Of a stretch of DNA of 64,000 nucleotides, positions 7,087 through 15,631 are shown piece by piece. The position numbers and the translations under genes are program-made. This DNA comes from Ignavibacteriota bacterium (GTDB lineage: Bacteria > Bacteroidota > Ignavibacteria > Palsa-1295): NCBI GenBank assembly GCA_963787835.1, contig CAWBEI010000003.1, positions 224,001 to 288,000 on the forward strand, in the 5' to 3' direction. The notes below the pieces were generated by a model. It did no database searches. It was not told the DNA's origin and saw nothing but the letters and a program-made list of their open reading frames with translations. How positions within the stretch are numbered: position 1 is the first letter of the stretch; each line of letters starts with the position of its first letter.

Positions 7087-7456
7087 TCGAAGGCTTCTCC
7101 GACTTGGAAGCCCCTCTCACATGTGTTGTTTGGAGCAAAGCATCTTGGTTATTTCACACAACAATCATTTGAAGTATTGAGGAGGAAGGTTTACTCACTG
7201 GAATCACAGACCGGCTCATGTCGGATATTTGTAATATTTGTCAGTCAACTAATGTCAAAAGATAAACTATTAAATATCCATAAACAGTTGATTATATTTA
7301 ACTTAAGCGGAGGACCTGGGATTCGAACGTCAAGTGCCGGAAGACAAACGATACCATTCTTCTTTACGTCTCTATGTTGCTACTATCCATTTGAACCATG
7401 GGTCCGGCTTGTGAATTTTGACAAATCGAACTTTTTTGATCTATTCAACTCTTTGC

Positions 7457-8044
7457 ATGACGATGGACTCGCGAACCGATCTCGACCTCCTAACTGCAAT
7501 TCAGGAACGCGCAGATAACAGCGCGTTGGGAGCTCTCTACGACCGTTATGGGCGAAAGGTCTATGTATTGGCCTATGGTATTTTGCGGTGCAAACCGGAC
7601 GCAGAGGACATACTGCAAGAGGTATTTGAGCGCGTTTGGAAGAAAAGCCACACCTATAATAGTACGCTTGGTAGCGTGAAAAGCTGGCTGCTCCGTATCA
7701 CACATAATCGTTCTATAAATAGGCTTAAAGCGCGTGCAATACGGGCAACCCATTCGGGCTACACTTCAGAGGGTGCGTATGGAGATTCCTTTACCGGCAG
7801 GATGCCAGAGAACATTTTAGATGCTTCCGAGATCGACATGGATTTCGACATTGGGATATTTGTTCGCAAAGCACTTGACTATTTACCCGAAGAGCAACGG
7901 CGGCTGATCGAACTGGCATTCTTCAAAGGGCTATCCCATTCGGAAATTGCTGAAACTGAGCAGATTCCGCTTGGCACCGTGAAGACTCGGATACGCAGCG
8001 GCATCGCTCGATTACGAACGGAATTAAAATTTTTAAGAACGTAG
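7457..8044 (+). CDS. ECF sigma factor (SigK/RpoE-like)
   Basis: Region 2 'DAEDILQEVF..VW...KSWLLRITHNRSIN', region 4 'GLSHSEIA...IPLGTVKTRIR'. Start is ATG 7457 or 7463. Confidence 0.92.
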   Translation: MTMDSRTDLDLLTAIQERADNSALGALYDRYGRKVYVLAYGILRCKPDAEDILQEVFERVWKKSHTYNSTLGSVKSWLLRITHNRSINRLKARAIRATHSGYTSEGAYGDSFTGRMPENILDASEIDMDFDIGIFVRKALDYLPEEQRRLIELAFFKGLSHSEIAETEQIPLGTVKTRIRSGIARLRTELKFLRT

Positions 8045-8149: not shown

Positions 8150-8782
8150 ATGGCGGAACAGAAACAACAGAGCAATGGAAACGGTCAAGACCCTTTAATG
8201 GGCAAAGAGCCACTAATGGGCAAAGAGCCACGCATCTCCAATGATGCGTTGCTCGGCTATCTTCAGGGCGAACTTCGGCTTCCGGACATGGAAGCGTTCG
8301 AGGCCGCCTCTGTAAATGATCCTGAACAAATGGAGTCGATTCGAGTCTATTCCGAATTGCTCGATTCCTTAACGGATCTATTGCCTGAACCTGAGATGCC
8401 TATCGGAGACGATATGCGGACGCGGATAATGTCTATTGCAGACTCCAAGCCGATCTCCCAAGTCATTCGTGCTCACCAAGGCCAGTGGATCGATTCTGGT
8501 ATGCCGGGATTTGAGTTCAAACTGCTGTATCAGGATCCGGAATCGAAGAAGAGTACGGTCCTCGCTCGTATCGCGGCAGGTGCACGAATGCCGCATCATC
8601 GCCATCAAGGCACAGAGGAATGTCTTATTATCGAAGGCAGCTTATGGACGGATGGCGTTCTGCTTGAAGCCGGAGATTTTATCGTGACGCAGGATCAAAC
8701 CGAGCATGAAGATACGTGGTCGCCTCATGGAGCGCTGGCACTTATAAAAACATATCTGGAGGATGAAATATTATCGAGTTAA
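8150..8782 (+). CDS. Anti-sigma factor with ChrR-like cupin domain
   Basis: Directly after the ECF sigma gene. N-terminal 'LLGYLQGEL' anti-sigma helix and cupin 'PHHRHQGTEE...EG...GD...H'. Confidence 0.82.
   Translation: MAEQKQQSNGNGQDPLMGKEPLMGKEPRISNDALLGYLQGELRLPDMEAFEAASVNDPEQMESIRVYSELLDSLTDLLPEPEMPIGDDMRTRIMSIADSKPISQVIRAHQGQWIDSGMPGFEFKLLYQDPESKKSTVLARIAAGARMPHHRHQGTEECLIIEGSLWTDGVLLEAGDFIVTQDQTEHEDTWSPHGALALIKTYLEDEILSS
8196..8231 (+). repeat. Perfect 18-bp tandem duplication (TAATGGGCAAAGAGCCAC x2) encoding PLMGKE-PLMGKE
   Basis: Read directly from sequence. Confidence 0.95.
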
Positions 8783-8941: not shown

Positions 8942-11026
8942 ATGCGTACACTTGCTAACTCATTCCGACTGCTCTTACCCTCAGCGGCGGTGCTTGCAGT
9001 AGTTCTCTTTGCCGCTCCTCAGGCCCAGGCGTCGAGCCATCGCGAAGCGCCACTGATCTCGAACGATCCCCTTGCGGATAACACGGATCTCTATGCCTTC
9101 GTATCTCCGGACGATCCGAATATGGTCACGATCATCGCGGACTACATCCCGTTTGAAGCTCCGCAAGGCGGACCGAACTTCGCAACGTTCGGGACAAACA
9201 TTCATTATGAAGTCCACATCAAAAATAATGCGATGACGGCAGGTGATGACATCACCTACCGGTTCACATTTTCCCAAACGAATCAGGATCCGACCACTTT
9301 CTTCAATATTCGTCTCGGAAAGCAAAATCTGATGACGACGTATGATTGCGAGAAATCAACCGATGGTGGAAACACCTGGACGACGATCGTGGCAAATGGA
9401 ACGGTTCCACCGCCGAACATCGGACCGCGTTCGATCGAGGGTGCTGCTGGACTTAATACGCCTTACGCGACCTTGATGCAAAATGCCGTTGCGAACGCTT
9501 CTGGCACTGGCGGCGAGACGATCTTTTGCGGACCGATCGATGACCCATTCTTTGTCGATTTAGGTGGAATCTTCGATCTAGGCGGATTTAATAAGCATGG
9601 CAAGGACGGTCTTGCCGGTTTCAACTGCCACACGATCGCGCTCAAAATTCCTATCTCTTCGCTTCAGAAAGATGGAAAGACTGTTTCGGAGGCTGCTAAT
9701 ATCTTAGACGGTAATTTCGTGATCGGCGTGTGGGCTTCTGCTTCGCGCATGAAATTCCGCACGATCAATGGTGATGGCACATACACCGATAGCGGTTCCT
9801 ATGTGCAGGTCAGCCGTCTTGGAATGCCACTTACGAACGAAGCCATCATTCCGATCGGAATGAAAGACAAGTGGAACTCTGGAACTCCCTATACCGATGC
9901 ATCCGGTGCCTACAATGCTAATTTCGTAAACCCGGAATTAGCACTCTATGTCGGAAATGGCGCGTATAGCGCTGCCGTTCCAGGACTTGCAAATCTTCGC
10001 CTCGATACCAATTCGCTCGGCGGAGGCTTCGATTTCCGAAATGGAAAGATAGGACTTTATGGCCTCTATGGTGCTGCGGCAACAAAGGGCACTGCCCTTG
10101 ATACTGCAAGTTTCGGGAAGATCCTTCTGGAACCAAATGCTCCCCGTTCGGTCGATCTACTGCCGATCTTCTACACCGGCGTGCCGAATATCGCGCCGTA
10201 TCAACTTGCAACCGGCAAAGCAGGTAATCCACTCGCAGCAGGTAAACCGTTCATCAATAATTTCCTGCCGACGCTCGGCGATATGCTGCGATTGAACATG
10301 GCCGTTCCCGCTACACCGCGAAACAGCCCTGATTTCAGCAGCGAAGGCCTCATTCAGGCGGCTGTGCTTGGCTTGACCGATTCACGCTTCAATGTGAATG
10401 CCACACTTCAGGATATTCCCAACATGGATGGGTTCCCGAACGGGCGACGCCTGGAAGACGATGTTACGACCATCGAAATGCAAGCCGTCGGCGGCCTGGT
10501 CTTGAATGCTATCGGCCTCTGGACGGACGATTATGTGCCCGGCTCATCGAAATCGCCGGTAACTCCATACCTTCTTGGCAAATTAGGCTGGGACGCCGGC
10601 GTAACGAAAAACGATGTACCGCTCCAAGCAACGTTTCCATACGTTGCCGCACCGCATCGTGGTTCGCTCGGACTAATGACCGATACTTCCACGATCGTCA
10701 TGGGAACTGCGGATGTTCACAATATCCCAGAGTCCATTGGTATTCATGCACCGGGCGGTCAGTTCACCGGTCAGAATTATCCGAATCCTGCGACAAGCCA
10801 ATCGACAACATTCCAATTCCATATCTCCGCCGTAGCTCCGGTGAGTGTAACGATCGTCGATGTCAATGGGATGCAGGTTGCGACGGCTTTCGCGCAACAG
10901 TGCACTCCTGGCGATTACACCTCCGCGTGGCAACTCCCACAAGGGCTTGCCTCCGGTGATTATTTTGCGGTGCTCTCGGTGGATGGGGAGCAAGTTTCGA
11001 CAATGCGATTTGTCGTAAACAAATAA
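8942..11026 (+). CDS. DUF4331 family protein with T9SS type-A sorting domain
   Basis: Signal peptide ending AQA, then 'SSHREAP...DNTDLYAF', 'DDPFFVDL', 'QVSRLGMPL.NE', 'GFPNGRRLEDDV', and CTD 'QNYPNP...SGDYF'. Confidence 0.9.
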   Translation: MRTLANSFRLLLPSAAVLAVVLFAAPQAQASSHREAPLISNDPLADNTDLYAFVSPDDPNMVTIIADYIPFEAPQGGPNFATFGTNIHYEVHIKNNAMTAGDDITYRFTFSQTNQDPTTFFNIRLGKQNLMTTYDCEKSTDGGNTWTTIVANGTVPPPNIGPRSIEGAAGLNTPYATLMQNAVANASGTGGETIFCGPIDDPFFVDLGGIFDLGGFNKHGKDGLAGFNCHTIALKIPISSLQKDGKTVSEAANILDGNFVIGVWASASRMKFRTINGDGTYTDSGSYVQVSRLGMPLTNEAIIPIGMKDKWNSGTPYTDASGAYNANFVNPELALYVGNGAYSAAVPGLANLRLDTNSLGGGFDFRNGKIGLYGLYGAAATKGTALDTASFGKILLEPNAPRSVDLLPIFYTGVPNIAPYQLATGKAGNPLAAGKPFINNFLPTLGDMLRLNMAVPATPRNSPDFSSEGLIQAAVLGLTDSRFNVNATLQDIPNMDGFPNGRRLEDDVTTIEMQAVGGLVLNAIGLWTDDYVPGSSKSPVTPYLLGKLGWDAGVTKNDVPLQATFPYVAAPHRGSLGLMTDTSTIVMGTADVHNIPESIGIHAPGGQFTGQNYPNPATSQSTTFQFHISAVAPVSVTIVDVNGMQVATAFAQQCTPGDYTSAWQLPQGLASGDYFAVLSVDGEQVSTMRFVVNK

Positions 11027-11115
11027 GATCCATCCTCTATCTCGCTTGGTTGCGCGTGGCATCTCGGATGCCACGCGCACCCTTCCGAAAAAATAACCAT
11101 ATCATTTTTATTGCA

Positions 11116-12456
11116 ATGAATCGTAGATCAATGCTCTGGATCGTTCCGATCGCAGTAGTAGCAATCGCTTCCATCGTGTTCCTTGCTTGGCCTTCTAAAA
11201 AAACGGCGCTTGCTATGCCGGATCTCCTGCCCCGACCTGGAGAAACAACCCCTTCTGCGGAATTCTTGAAAAGCGAGGCGGATGTAAAAAAATACCGCAT
11301 AGAGCTTGCTGAACATCCAGATAAAAGTGAGGATTATGTTAAGCTTGCCGAGATTTATTTGCAAGAGTCGCGGGTGACGGCGAATCACCATTTCTACATT
11401 CCAGTGGCTTCCGCGCTTCTCGACGAAACGCTTCGTCGGGACACGAATAATTTCGAGGCGCTCGTCACGAACGCGGGACTTCAAATGACGCTGCATCAAT
11501 TTCAGAAGGCCGATGACATGGTCACCAGCGCTATTCGTCAAAATCCGTATAACGCCACTTCGTATGGTGTGCTCTGCGATGCGAATGTTGAGCTTGGGAA
11601 TTATCATGAAGCGGTGACCGCATGTGACAGCATGATGTCCAAGCGCCCCGATCTCCGTTCCTACGCACGAGCATCGTATTTGCGTCAGCTTATGGGAAAG
11701 GACTCCTCGGCCATTCAGGCCATGCTGCTGGCCGCCGATGCCGGTCTTTCCGGAAGCGAGAGCCGATCCTGGGCGCTCTATCAGCTTGGTAACCTTTTTA
11801 TTCAAGCTGGCAAGTTCGACACGGCCGCGTTTATTTTCAATGGGATTTTAGAAGAGCGCCCTGGTTATGCCTATGCAAAGAGCGGACTTGCAATGATCCA
11901 CCTTGCGAAGGGCGAATATACGGATGCGATCCGCGAACTTGCATCGGCCATGCAGGCATTGCCGGAACATATTTTTCTCGAACAGCTTGCCGACGTTTAT
12001 ATCGCAATGGGAGATACCGCGAATGCGCGGACGTTAGAAACCAGGGTATTCGCCGCATTCGATCAGCATGAACAGGATGGCTGGAATGTCGATCGCGAAT
12101 ACGCGCAGTTTGCCGCCGACCATAATGTGCGATTGGGCGAAGCTGTCACTCGAGCAGAACGGGAATGGAAACGCCGCCCGAATAATGCGGATGCCATTGA
12201 AACATACGCGTGGTCGCTCTTGAAAAATGGCGATGCTCAAAAAGCGGAAACCATCATGGAGTTCGGATTGAAGTCCGGGATCGTCACACCGACGATGCAC
12301 TATCATGCAGCAGTTATTTATGCGTCGTTGGGCAGAACTGCCGAGGCTCAGGAAGAATGGCGATCCGCCATCCTTCGAGTGCCGTGTGTAAAACCGGCGC
12401 TGGTGCGTGACGCGAAATCGTTCCTGACGAACAGGGAACGCCTTTCCATGAACTAA
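11116..12456 (+). CDS. Membrane-anchored TPR protein (DUF4331-associated type)
   Basis: N-terminal hydrophobic anchor and multiple TPR motifs. Start set at ATG 11116. Confidence 0.8.
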   Translation: MNRRSMLWIVPIAVVAIASIVFLAWPSKKTALAMPDLLPRPGETTPSAEFLKSEADVKKYRIELAEHPDKSEDYVKLAEIYLQESRVTANHHFYIPVASALLDETLRRDTNNFEALVTNAGLQMTLHQFQKADDMVTSAIRQNPYNATSYGVLCDANVELGNYHEAVTACDSMMSKRPDLRSYARASYLRQLMGKDSSAIQAMLLAADAGLSGSESRSWALYQLGNLFIQAGKFDTAAFIFNGILEERPGYAYAKSGLAMIHLAKGEYTDAIRELASAMQALPEHIFLEQLADVYIAMGDTANARTLETRVFAAFDQHEQDGWNVDREYAQFAADHNVRLGEAVTRAEREWKRRPNNADAIETYAWSLLKNGDAQKAETIMEFGLKSGIVTPTMHYHAAVIYASLGRTAEAQEEWRSAILRVPCVKPALVRDAKSFLTNRERLSMN

Positions 12457-12467
12457 CGCGCATACCA

Positions 12468-12962
12468 ATGCTCTCGTTGATCTTTGCACGGATGTTTTTA
12501 CTATGTGCCTTTCATGCGGTGCACATTAGTTACGGTGATTTTTCCGTCACGCAAAATTCAGTGCATGACCGATCATCCGTGCTGAGTGGTAGTTTTACGT
12601 TTTACAAAGACGATTGGGCGAAGGCAACCGAGCATTGGTTCGGTCGATCGATGACAAACGAGCCGAAGGCAGTACAGGACTGGATGGAATCCGAATATCT
12701 CAAGGGGCATGTCCGCTTTTGGTTGGATGGCTACAGCACTCCGGTTCACTTCGATCTGCGGGTAAAAGAAGATGCGGCGCAATCGATCACTTACGAGTTT
12801 ACCGCTCCAGTTTCCTCCGATCATCATGTGGTCATCATAGATTCGCGCGCGGTGCTTTCTGAATATAGCGATCAGATGAATTTGATGACCGTGAAAGTTC
12901 GCGGCAAATCGACGAACATTATTTTTACAAGCGATCATACAACCTCAATCATAAAACTTTAA
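12468..12962 (+). CDS. DUF6702-like exported protein
   Basis: Short signal followed by 'FHAVHIS', C-terminal 'EYSDQMNL' motif, position before HupE/UreJ. Confidence 0.6.
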   Translation: MLSLIFARMFLLCAFHAVHISYGDFSVTQNSVHDRSSVLSGSFTFYKDDWAKATEHWFGRSMTNEPKAVQDWMESEYLKGHVRFWLDGYSTPVHFDLRVKEDAAQSITYEFTAPVSSDHHVVIIDSRAVLSEYSDQMNLMTVKVRGKSTNIIFTSDHTTSIIKL

Positions 12963-12967
12963 CGATC

Positions 12968-13525
12968 ATGTTCACACAATTTATCCAGATCGGGTTCCAG
13001 CATATTCTCGAGGGGTATGATCACTTGCTTTTTCTTACGGCACTTGTGCTCGTAAGCCGCCGTTGGCAGGATCTACTAAGTGTTATTTCCGCATTCACGA
13101 TCGCACATACAACGACGATCGTGCTGTGCGTGTTCGGCGTACTCTCGCTTCCGTCCCTTCTTACAGAATCACTTATTGCGGCCTCGATCGCTTATGCAGG
13201 AATTGAAAATATGTTTCGAAAAAATTTCGATACGCGTTGGGTGATCGCCGGAGCATTCGGGCTTATTCATGGCGCGGGGTTTTCCGGGCATCTTGTCAGT
13301 GTGTTACAACCGTTGCTTGGGACGGGCCAAGTATGGGGACCGATCTTCGGTTTTACCTTTGGCATCGAAATGGGGCAGCTTGCTGTGATCACGCTCATCT
13401 ATCCCGCAGTGATGCTGGCTCGTTATTTCGGGAGAGAGCGGGTTTTTGTGCGAGCATTCTCCGCGCTTATTGCGATGGCAGGTACCGCCCTTCTAATAAT
13501 GCGGCTCTCCGGCTCTTCTTTGTGA
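12968..13525 (+). CDS. HupE/UreJ family membrane protein (putative Ni/Co permease)
   Basis: 'GFQHILEGYDHLLF', 'AFTIAHT', 'FGLIHGAGF', 'GIEMGQL' motifs. Confidence 0.9.
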   Translation: MFTQFIQIGFQHILEGYDHLLFLTALVLVSRRWQDLLSVISAFTIAHTTTIVLCVFGVLSLPSLLTESLIAASIAYAGIENMFRKNFDTRWVIAGAFGLIHGAGFSGHLVSVLQPLLGTGQVWGPIFGFTFGIEMGQLAVITLIYPAVMLARYFGRERVFVRAFSALIAMAGTALLIMRLSGSSL

Positions 13526-13573: not shown

Positions 13574-15631
13574 ATGATACGAATGTTAATCCTCCGAACC
13601 TCCTTCGCAGCTCTATTCATTTCCGCGGCTCTTTCAGGGTTATGGAATCCGGCACACGCCCAATCCAAAGTAGACACGATCCATGAAAAGGAGCAAGTAG
13701 TCACCGTCACCGCAGAGCGCCCGCTTTCTGCGGCCTCGGACAAAAGTTTCCGCGATTCTGATTTTGAGCTTCGACCACGTAACTCCGCGCAAGATATGCT
13801 CCGGCTCGTTCCGGGACTGGTGCTTGCACAGCATGCGGGCGGCGGAAAAGCGGAACAGATCTTTTTGCGCGGATTCGATGCCGATCACGGAACCGACGTG
13901 AATATCTCCGTTGACGACGTTCCAGTTAATATGCTTAGTCATGGACATGGGCAAGGTTATGCCGATCTTCATTTTATCATACCAGAAACGATCCAGGAAG
14001 TAGATGTGGTCAAAGGTCCGTATTCTCCTCGCTATGGCGATCTTGCAACGGCAGGGGTGATTGCCTTCCAAACGAAAGATTCGCTCAAATATAACGAGTT
14101 GAAACTTGAAGGTGGGTCCTTCGATGAATATCGAGCGCTCGCGCTCATCAAAGGCCCATCTTCACAAACGATCCAATCCTATTTTGGCACCGATCTATTC
14201 TATACGCGAGGACCGTTCGACGTTGCCCAGGATTTTCATCGTCTTAATCTGTTCGCAAAGACCGATGCTGCGCTCAGCGACGATGCAAAACTTTCCGCGA
14301 GTCTTTTTTCTTTTAGTTCCTCCTGGAATGCGAATGGCCAGATTCCGGAGCGCGCCGTCGCAGATGGCCTCATCGACCGTTTCGGTTCGCTCGATTCAAC
14401 AGAAGGCGGCGCAACATCACGCACCACCGCCAACATCACATACACATCAGGAGGAGAATCCCCTCTGACACTTACCGCCTCTTACACCGATTATCATTTT
14501 CGGCTGTTTAGCGATTTTACTTTTTATCTTGTTGATACCACTCAAGGAGACGAAGTGGAACAGACAGATTCACGCACCCTGCTTGCGTTTCGGGGGGAAC
14601 GAACACTTCCCTGGATCTTAGGCGACGCCATCATGAATACAAAGATCGGTGTCAGCACACGAAGCGATGATATTCAAGCTGCCATCTATCATGATTCTGC
14701 GCGCGTCCGACTCAACAATGTAGTAGATGCGGCCATTCAGGAGCGGGAAACAGGGCCATATATTCAGCAGGAGATCGGGCTTGGATGGATTCAATTCATT
14801 CTTGGGCTTCGCGCAGACTATGCAACGGTCGATGTACAGAATTTGCTAAATTCCGGCGCACAGCCAAACGGTATCAACCAGCAGATCATCCTTTCGCCGA
14901 AAGCGAATGCAAGCATTCCAATAAGCAATGACGCCACAGCATTTCTGAATTTTGGCTATGGGTTTCATTCCAACGACGCGCGTGCCATTGTGCAATCTCC
15001 GGGAATTCCGACCTTACCGCGAGCGCTTGGCAGCGAGATCGGTTTACGGTATGGCGAACCTTCGGAATTCTTTTCCTGCTCATCCTCGCTATGGTATCTT
15101 TACCTTCAAAGCGAACTTGTCTGGGACGGCGATGAAGGAACACTTATTGCACAAGGAAGTACACGTAGGGAAGGCATCGATCTCGAAGCACGCATTCGTC
15201 CAACAGAATGGCTCACGTTCGGGGGGGATGCAACGATTTCCGAGGGGCGGTTCGTCGATTCTGCAGTTGGCAATAATTACATTCCTCTTGCACCAAATTT
15301 TACGCTTACGGGAAATGCCGTCGCCAAGTGGGATGATTTTTCCGCTGCCTTGCGCTTGAGACACGTCGGCGACCGACCTGCCAATACCGACAATTCTATT
15401 GTTGCAAAGGGGTATTCGATTTTCGATCTTTCACTCACCTATCATACAGGGCCCTATGAATTGTACGCAAACGTCGAGAACGTATTCAACACAGTTTGGA
15501 ACGAGGCTCAATTCGCGACCGTAAGCCGTATTTATGTTCACGGCGTGCTTGAGGCAAATCCGGTGGATGATCTCAGCTTTACGGCTGGAACCCCAATCTC
15601 CGTAAGGACAGGAATCGCCTTTAGTTTTTGA
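13574..15631 (+). CDS. TonB-dependent receptor with His-rich plug
   Basis: TonB-box-like 'VTVTA', plug 'QHAGGGKAEQIFLRGFDADHG...SHGHGQGYADLHF', 'VVKGPYS..YG', C-terminal Phe. Confidence 0.92.
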   Translation: MIRMLILRTSFAALFISAALSGLWNPAHAQSKVDTIHEKEQVVTVTAERPLSAASDKSFRDSDFELRPRNSAQDMLRLVPGLVLAQHAGGGKAEQIFLRGFDADHGTDVNISVDDVPVNMLSHGHGQGYADLHFIIPETIQEVDVVKGPYSPRYGDLATAGVIAFQTKDSLKYNELKLEGGSFDEYRALALIKGPSSQTIQSYFGTDLFYTRGPFDVAQDFHRLNLFAKTDAALSDDAKLSASLFSFSSSWNANGQIPERAVADGLIDRFGSLDSTEGGATSRTTANITYTSGGESPLTLTASYTDYHFRLFSDFTFYLVDTTQGDEVEQTDSRTLLAFRGERTLPWILGDAIMNTKIGVSTRSDDIQAAIYHDSARVRLNNVVDAAIQERETGPYIQQEIGLGWIQFILGLRADYATVDVQNLLNSGAQPNGINQQIILSPKANASIPISNDATAFLNFGYGFHSNDARAIVQSPGIPTLPRALGSEIGLRYGEPSEFFSCSSSLWYLYLQSELVWDGDEGTLIAQGSTRREGIDLEARIRPTEWLTFGGDATISEGRFVDSAVGNNYIPLAPNFTLTGNAVAKWDDFSAALRLRHVGDRPANTDNSIVAKGYSIFDLSLTYHTGPYELYANVENVFNTVWNEAQFATVSRIYVHGVLEANPVDDLSFTAGTPISVRTGIAFSF

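Follow-up and report, generated by a model that had tools for sequence, protein, structure and literature searches.

We analysed a 64,000-nucleotide stretch of the genome of an Ignavibacteriota bacterium (assembly GCA_963787835.1, contig CAWBEI010000003.1, positions 224,001 to 288,000 of the forward strand), hereafter the window, and specifically its DUF4331 gene (8942-11026, + strand). We propose, as a reading that stands evenly between right and wrong, that the DUF4331 protein is exported, that its mature chain would start with Ser-Ser-His and that this tip would bind Cu(II)/Ni(II) and feed metal uptake. Binding would follow an amino-terminal Cu(II)/Ni(II)-binding (ATCUN) arrangement, with the free amine, two backbone amides and the imidazole of His3 as ligands, and the metal would then be passed on to the products of downstream genes, namely a TonB-dependent receptor, a DUF6702 protein and a HupE/UreJ-2 permease. 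The observations that carry this proposal are the family membership of the protein, the register of the histidine and its conservation, the gene neighbourhood, and the lack of any other conserved soft ligand in the domain.

The open reading frame (ORF) encodes 694 amino acids and represents a full-length member of the family. Its translation opens with the leader MRTLANSFRLLLPSAAVLAVVLFAAPQAQA and continues with the predicted mature start SSHREAPLISNDPLADNTDLYAF. Residues 1-30 (8942-9031, +) form a predicted Sec signal peptide: Arg2 and Arg9 precede a hydrophobic core, LLLPSAAVLAVVLFAA, and positions -3 to -1 are A-Q-A. Residue 31 begins at base 9032, the codons of Ser31-Ser32-His33 occupy 9032-9040, and the predicted mature N-terminus S-S-H-R-E-A-P spans 9032-9052 (+), with His33 at mature position 3. 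A preliminary description of this locus had placed S-S-H-R-E-A-P at 9032-9052, after an A-Q-A ending at residue 30, and the translation agrees with it exactly. The DUF4331 domain proper covers residues 31-571 (9032-10654, +) and matches PF14224 over its whole length (positions 1-421 of 421), scoring 417.2 bits where the cut-off is 27 (E 1.2e-124); since profile position 1 aligns to residue 31, the family model itself begins at Ser31. The gene is single-copy in the 3.57-Mb genome. At its C-terminus the protein carries a type A sorting domain of the type IX secretion system (T9SS; residues 613-693, 10778-11020, +), detected by NCBIfam TIGR04183 with 30.6 bits (cut-off 23) and, in a whole-genome scan, with 35.2 bits at C3:234778-235020, the same bases in contig numbering; Pfam PF18962 reached 18.8 bits, under its cut-off of 27. 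The genome holds at least 150 T9SS sorting domains, that of DUF4331 included, and by its TIGR04183 score the protein is a predicted T9SS cargo. The window DUF4331, having both a leader of Sec type and a sorting domain for T9SS, is thus predicted to be exported.

The position of the histidine was then compared across relatives, each of which was anchored on the conserved His before the preceding residues were read; cleavage sites were inferred from the -3/-1 rule, hydrophobicity and leaderless relatives. In five sets of N-termini, which may overlap, His was third in 472 of 473 evaluable sequences pooled, the one exception being Tyr. Of 120 listed close homologues, all with 59% identity or more, one lacks its N-terminus and the other 119 show SSH after a leader. 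The cluster representatives were the best 150 of 5283 clusters (50% identity, E 0.001 or better); 31 were N-terminal fragments, and the 119 evaluable ones gave 118 His and one Tyr. A third set, the only one gathered independently of the tip, came from 72 genome loci found with the motifs PNGR[RQ][LP]xDDV and VDLG..., which lie far from it. These loci contain 110 genes, 108 of which show a leader and then SSH (106 by pattern, two by eye), the two unevaluable genes being masked in one case and running off the contig in the other. This search returned only Bacteroidota-like, Calditrichota and Rhodothermia-like genomes, and the other phyla were reached through plasmid records. Of the 35 records that matched, 10 were read, from Actinomycetota and from Alpha-, Beta- and Gammaproteobacteria; they gave nine cases of Ala followed by SSH and one leaderless form. 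Finally, the relatives of a divergent member, P0249, contributed 117 new sequences, all 117 with SSH, including proteins with the source labels Thermomicrobiales/Chloroflexota, Planctomycetota and Eiseniibacteriota. A third-position His is therefore found in Bacteroidota, Calditrichota, Actinomycetota and Alpha-, Beta- and Gammaproteobacteria, and also in source-labelled metagenome proteins of Chloroflexota and Planctomycetota. The preliminary description had made its proposal depend on this point, as homologues mostly placing His elsewhere would have spoken against it, and on this point it stood.

The residues around the tip are equally regular. The dipeptide before His in the 119 evaluable representatives is SS in 114, AS in three, TS in one and SN in one. 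Among the 106 representatives with a leader of at least 12 residues, position -1 is Ala in 96, Gly in six and Ser in four, position -3 is Ala in 48, Val in 16, Leu in 14, Thr in 10, Gly in nine, Ser in seven and Ile in two, and a hydrophobic core is present in 103. Position -1 in the 115 long leaders of the P0249 set is Ala in 112 and Thr, Ser and Gly in one each. Across all sets, the variable leader ends in Ala, Gly, Ser or (once) Thr directly before X-X-His, and because variable leaders all stop right before this invariant element we judge the register to be non-random. The window protein, with A-Q-A followed by S-S-H, would thus share with nearly all its relatives the His3 of an ATCUN site, and residue 2, at which such a site does not accept Pro, is Ser in the window and, throughout the 119 evaluable representatives, either Ser or Asn. 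The sole exception sampled, P0170, is a 276-residue fragment that reads ...QA and then S-S-Y-R-E-A-P, Tyr replacing His. Besides, tandem DUF4331 paralogues (two or three copies) are frequent, for instance at loci L003, L004, L006 and L007, each copy having its own leader and SSH.

Ala-Ser-Ser likewise satisfies the -3/-1 rule in every sequence, so this rule and hydrophobicity do not separate A/SSH from ASS/H (the slash marking the cut), and the leaderless forms and the S-N-H variant were used for that purpose. Eleven leaderless forms start with Met/Val-Ser-Ser-His (one with Met-Thr-Ser-His). Ten of them are gene calls beginning M-S-S-H (one M-T-S-H), nine among the representatives and one in the P0249 set; in the remaining one, a Kitasatospora plasmid gene, a GTG lies directly before S-S-H and the upstream sequence has no hydrophobic stretch. 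Removal of the initiator Met before Ser or Thr is established biochemistry, and the leaderless forms would therefore acquire an X-X-His tip and never His1. A cut directly before His is disfavoured, since the M-S-S-H forms cannot shed Ser-Ser through Met removal, and the S-N-H variant, which would put Asn at -1, disallows it. Furthermore, the constant Ser-Ser spacer looks deliberate, because the His1 proteins encoded beside DUF4331 (see below) carry His directly after Ala. In the predicted mature chains, then, Ser-Ser or a variant dipeptide precedes His, which is not mature residue 1 as in a histidine brace. A FastTree phylogeny of 105 sequences placed six of the seven leaderless rows in one clade (support 99), with the M-T-S-H form apart; this tree needs two leader changes, its well-supported branches force only one, and a single origin is compatible with it. 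The earlier proposal that the SSH tip is created by signal cleavage would accordingly hold for the leader-bearing proteins, in which the leader ends right before SSH, and has to be widened by a second route, Met removal, in the leaderless ones.

Within the domain, the alignment of 105 sequences has seven invariant columns: H3, P7, D19, G131, R262, P469 and R472. His3 is present in all 105 and is the only His/Cys/Met column above 75%, the next-best ones reaching 74/105 and 53/105; neither a second conserved soft ligand nor a recognisable catalytic motif was found in this alignment. An ATCUN site requires no further side chain besides His3. Acidic residues are abundant, with 15 Asp/Glu columns at 90% or more. 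A confident AlphaFold2 model of the domain (pLDDT 92.4, pTM 0.92) consists of a beta-sandwich of immunoglobulin-like (Ig-like) type, residues 17-263, followed by a half rich in helices and loops. A sequence search of solved structures gave no match below E 0.29, Foldseek against the PDB returned no match at E 0.001 or better for either the full model or the N-terminal domain (TM 0.20 or less), and a search of the ESM Atlas gave no usable match. In a wide search with VIA-align, the best Z was 6.3 for the full model (7uwu_A, rmsd 6.5, 224 aligned residues) and 7.8 for domain 1-270, where the remaining matches were antibody-type Ig domains in a list without any steep drop. As far as the model goes, DUF4331 would resemble solved structures only as a generic Ig-like sandwich, which is not proof of a new fold.

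In the window, DUF4331 belongs to a cluster of seven genes on the same (+) strand, from 7418-8044 to 13574-15631; pckA, which comes after it, is unrelated. The cluster opens with an extracytoplasmic function (ECF) type sigma factor (7418-8044, +; Sigma70_r2 63.6 bits, Sigma70_r4_2 49.7 bits) and a ChrR-type anti-sigma factor with a cupin domain (8150-8782, +; Cupin_7 64.8 bits) that contains HHRHQGTEE. The anti-sigma factor has no evident membrane segment, for which reason the switch of the cluster may be cytoplasmic, and possibly metal-dependent, rather than receptor-driven. DUF4331 is followed by a tetratricopeptide repeat (TPR) protein with an N-terminal membrane anchor (11050-12456, +; TPR_19 and other TPR families of Pfam), a DUF6702 protein (12468-12962, +; PF20420, 35.6 bits against a cut-off of 24) and a HupE/UreJ-2 permease (12968-13525, +; PF13795, 133.9 bits), the only HupE/UreJ-2 match in the whole genome. 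With 185 residues and a profile match starting at residue 5, this permease is unfused and is no Anglerase-type fusion. The DUF6702 gene ends 5 bases upstream of it, an arrangement that resembles a split domain-permease fusion. The leader of DUF6702, MLSLIFARMFLLCAF (...FLLCAF), is followed by HAVHISYGDF; a His1 start would need Phe at -1, which is atypical for cleavage and leaves this protein at most a possible His1 protein. Cleavage after Cys instead would yield Ala-Phe-His, another X-X-His tip. The last gene encodes a TonB-dependent outer-membrane receptor (13574-15631, +; Plug 67.6 bits) whose scores for the NCBIfam TonB receptor subfamilies were all under their cut-offs. Plug alone matched it in the Pfam scan, in which an N-terminal signalling domain was absent.

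The neighbourhood of DUF4331 in other genomes was quantified by tblastn with the window proteins over the 72 loci, 29 of which have full 10-kb flanks. The commonest neighbour is a relative of the TPR protein (54/72 loci; 27/29 with full flanks), and these partners are either transmembrane-anchored proteins or lipoproteins. Relatives of the TonB-dependent receptor occur at 26/72 loci (14/29), those of HupE/UreJ-2 at 21/72 (9/29) and those of the sigma factor at 12/72 (6/29). Where HupE/UreJ-2 is missing, the TPR gene is followed by a TonB-dependent receptor (six loci) or by a NicO protein (one locus). The linkage to HupE/UreJ that the preliminary description had invoked is therefore real and partial, the near-constant partner being the TPR protein. 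Relatives of DUF6702 were found at none of the 72 loci; among the sampled loci this gene is specific to the window, and we rejected it as a general partner of DUF4331. Two TPR partner genes (L007:16619-18145 and L032:2444-3841) have one internal stop each, which may reflect sequencing error or decay.

The plasmid records extend this picture to other phyla. In Streptomyces anulatus and a Streptomycetaceae plasmid, DUF4331 is accompanied by a TPR gene and a NicO-type 'nickel transporter', and in Miltoncostaea by a TPR gene. In Marinobacter, Pseudoalteromonas, a Comamonadaceae strain and Lichenicola, it stands with a TPR-like gene (that of Lichenicola has no Pfam match) and a HupE/UreJ-2 protein of 366-406 aa. 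A sigma/anti-sigma pair also lies upstream of DUF4331 in Pseudoalteromonas and at locus L049. All six permeases read beside DUF4331 in these phyla (four HupE/UreJ-2, two NicO) carry a periplasmic domain in which a signal peptide is followed by His1, in the contexts TWA/H, LKA/H, ALA/H, ADA/H, ASA/H and AAA/H, and the fused His1 forms of HupE/UreJ-2 are those that adjoin DUF4331 in the four proteobacterial plasmids. In the Streptomycetaceae plasmid, a class F sortase gene (L083:7791-8534) lies between DUF4331 and its TPR/NicO neighbours, which suggests that DUF4331 is anchored to the cell wall in some Gram-positive hosts. Directly before the leaderless Kitasatospora gene lies a small ORF (L078:5445-5903) whose product has a twin-arginine signal, SRRSLMRQAAAVGAAG, as well as a run of HDHDHD, and the gene is followed by a 112-aa ORF starting MTQQHTHPHLH (L078:7462-7800); both look like metal-related helpers. 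The context on the Sulfitobacter (L081) and Paracoccus (L082) plasmids is unlike all others: DUF4331 has an A24 prepilin peptidase gene on one side and a block of type II secretion system (T2SS) genes on the other, and neither a permease nor a TPR gene is annotated in its vicinity.

These neighbours connect DUF4331 to a recently published group of metalloproteins. Franco Cairo et al. (2025, Nat Commun, PMC12537917) sought proteins exposing His1 upon signal cleavage and, in the part of the article drawn on here, covered the N-terminal-His families DUF6702, Ang-1, Ang-2 and DUF4198. There, the affinities reported for PaDUF6702 are 5.6 pM with Ni, 3.6 nM with Co and 3.3 nM with Cu, while Ang-1 and Ang-2, carried on HupE/UreJ-2, bind Cu at 62-74 nM, with a value of 220 nM for Ni in the case of Ang-1; His is first after signal cleavage in 65% of the DUF6702 family, PaDUF6702 and Ang-1 have a beta-sandwich of Ig-like architecture, and the His1 domains are proposed to 'fish' metal for the permease (PMC12537917). 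The same portion of the text does not discuss DUF4331, which appears in three sheets of the source data with neighbour counts of 1, 2 and 1 among the matches listed. Two copper papers (PMC12509749, PMC12914433) do not concern DUF4331 in the parts consulted, and a full-text literature search with the family name, PF14224 and IPR025566 found no paper naming it. As judged from this portion of PMC12537917, DUF4331 has in common with these systems a candidate metal residue set by the processed N-terminus, an N-terminal domain whose model gives only Ig-like matches, the architecture of PaDUF6702 and Ang-1 being Ig-like too, and shared operons, with DUF6702 and HupE/UreJ-2 in the window and His1-domain permease fusions at other loci. 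It differs from them in having His at position 3 instead of 1 and no sequence kinship with those families, and the window differs from the domain-permease fusions in that periplasmic domain and permease are separate genes. By analogy with relatives that bind Ni, Cu and Co in that work, we regard the adjacent His1 domains, on the permeases and possibly on the DUF6702 of the window, as the strongest new support for a metal-binding tip (PMC12537917).

Other known systems offer partial parallels. ATCUN sites have the form NH2-Xaa-Xaa-His; serum albumin has one that reads Asp-Ala-His, and in human Ctr1 the extracellular tip reads Met-Asp-His. Like these, the DUF4331 tip would be extracytoplasmic and has His3 counted from a predicted free amine and a residue 2 other than Pro; as in Ctr1, it is associated with a metal importer. 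In contrast to them, it sits on a large bacterial domain without a solved relative, it arises by signal peptidase or Met removal, its residues 1, 2 and 4-7 are conserved, and its metal binding is predicted from sequence. The hemophore HasA feeds the TonB-dependent receptor HasR, and DUF4331, predicted to be secreted or to sit on the surface, likewise has the gene of a TonB-dependent receptor as a neighbour and stands under an ECF sigma/anti-sigma pair. Its ligand, however, would be a bare metal ion held on the chain terminus, the receptor of the window matched only Plug in the Pfam scan, and the anti-sigma factor is of the ChrR/cupin type. For the leaderless branch, the large subunit of [NiFe]-hydrogenase provides a precedent, being exported through the twin-arginine translocation (Tat) pathway as a 'hitchhiker' with its signal-bearing small subunit: the Kitasatospora protein is encoded right behind a small one that bears a twin-arginine signal. 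Two other actinobacterial DUF4331 proteins have their own leader and a NicO-type permease nearby. The parallel would apply to the leaderless branch alone, whereas the window protein has its own Sec leader.

As to the metal, ATCUN sites accept both Cu(II) and Ni(II). In the genome (97.9% complete), neither urease alpha nor the large subunit of [NiFe]-hydrogenase gave a match, other nickel enzymes lying outside that search, and there are two genes for subunit I of heme-copper oxidases. On these grounds copper appears somewhat more likely than nickel to be the metal of DUF4331 in this organism. A search for nickel superoxide dismutase was uninformative, as the control genomes were without match as well. 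The name HupE/UreJ-2 may mislead as to the metal of the permease in this organism.

Several observations weigh against the proposal that the Ser-Ser-His tip captures metal for uptake. Both the metal binding and the mature N-terminus of DUF4331 are predicted, and cleavage site, exposure of the tip, identity of the metal and direction of its flow are likewise what we infer. ATCUN sites hold Cu(II) very tightly, and a relay would consequently need a release step, for which no candidate is identifiable. HupE/UreJ-2 accompanies DUF4331 at only nine of the 29 full-flank loci, and the Rhodobacterales copies adjoin T2SS genes with no permease in view. If T9SS exports DUF4331 to the outside, the periplasmic TPR neighbour would meet it only in transit. 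The representatives sampled are the best 150 of the 5283 clusters, the distant tail of the family lying outside them. A mere carrier would not need so large a conserved domain (about 540 residues), in which 15 columns are acidic at 90% or more. Some of these points would also fit with the tip being a metal site and DUF4331 the endpoint of the metal, that is, a secreted metalloprotein or enzyme loaded by the permease, the His1 domain and the TPR protein, an account we consider unlikely though worth keeping in sight. The size of the domain and its many invariant non-ligand residues, the frequency of tandem paralogues and the copies beside T2SS genes without a nearby permease agree with it. So does the position of the leaderless Kitasatospora protein behind a Tat-signal protein, as Tat passengers usually fold and take up their cofactors before export, the [NiFe]-hydrogenase large subunit being an example. 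Against it speak the TonB-dependent receptors, which are importers and follow the TPR gene at many loci, the missing second soft ligand or catalytic motif, and the lack of likeness to any solved enzyme.

The fixed register could also be explained structurally, if the amine and His3 docked as a salt-bridge or hydrogen-bond plug, possibly with a Ca2+ site formed by nearby Asp residues. Ser1, Ser2, Arg4, Glu5, Ala6 and Pro7, each conserved at 90% or more, together with D12, P13, D16, T18 and D19 (90-100% for the whole series), are not needed by an ATCUN site, and the conservation of S1, S2 and R4-P7 indicates that the segment is constrained by more than a free tripeptide. Residues 1-10 have a mean pLDDT of 77 in the full model, which falls to 61 if only residues 1-270 are folded, a drop that hints, as far as a model can, at an N-terminal segment packed on the C-terminal half and not dangling; the fifteen acidic columns would suit hard cations. 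Such a role leaves unexplained why DUF4331 repeatedly adjoins Ni/Co/Cu-type permeases with His1 domains, and why His does not vary (the lone exception being Tyr) although Asn or Gln would often be acceptable in a structural role, and we therefore give it a rather small chance. A catalytic use of the N-terminus without metal, with Ser1 as the nucleophile of an N-terminal nucleophile (Ntn) type hydrolase, the free amine as base and His3 assisting, is very unlikely: an exact N-terminus, obtained by cleavage or by Met removal, would indeed be required, and position 1 holds a small hydroxyl residue in 116 of 119 representatives, but the other three have Ala where the nucleophile should be invariant. 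The gene context is one of metal transport, and the model, an Ig-like beta-sandwich plus a helix/loop half, brought no Ntn hydrolase among the listed fold matches, which is weak evidence. Least probable, with next to no chance in our estimate, is that signal peptidase cuts after Ala-Ser-Ser to expose a His1 histidine brace such as those of lytic polysaccharide monooxygenases, CopC, DUF6702 and Ang-1. The permissive A-S-S context of every sequence and the presence of His1 proteins in the same clusters would accommodate this cut; the M-S-S-H forms, the Asn at -1 of the S-N-H variant and the Ser-Ser spacer, which the true His1 partners lack, argue against it, and Ala is generally the commoner residue at -1.

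Altogether, and extending the metal-capture proposal beyond the window, it is tempting to speculate that DUF4331, its TPR partner and a His1-domain permease form a widespread, hitherto undescribed metal-capture pathway present in many phyla, although in this full form we put it forward only tentatively and think it more probably wrong than right. A secreted or surface protein with an ATCUN tip, produced by signal cleavage or by Met removal with a Tat escort, would catch Cu(II)/Ni(II) and, through a TonB-dependent receptor in the case of Bacteroidota, hand it off to the histidine-brace domain of a HupE/UreJ-2 or NicO permease. The DUF4331 family is large, since 5283 clusters (50% identity) match it at E 0.001 or better, and the members read here span several phyla. 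If the SSH tip is a metal site, this family would acquire a function, and the recently described His1 domains that HupE/UreJ-2 permeases carry would have a partner upstream of them. The acquisition of copper and nickel by bacteria, which is poorly charted beyond a few models, would gain a protein-based capture step, in which the active site would be defined by the position of the chain start and not by the fold, and preserved through two different processing routes.

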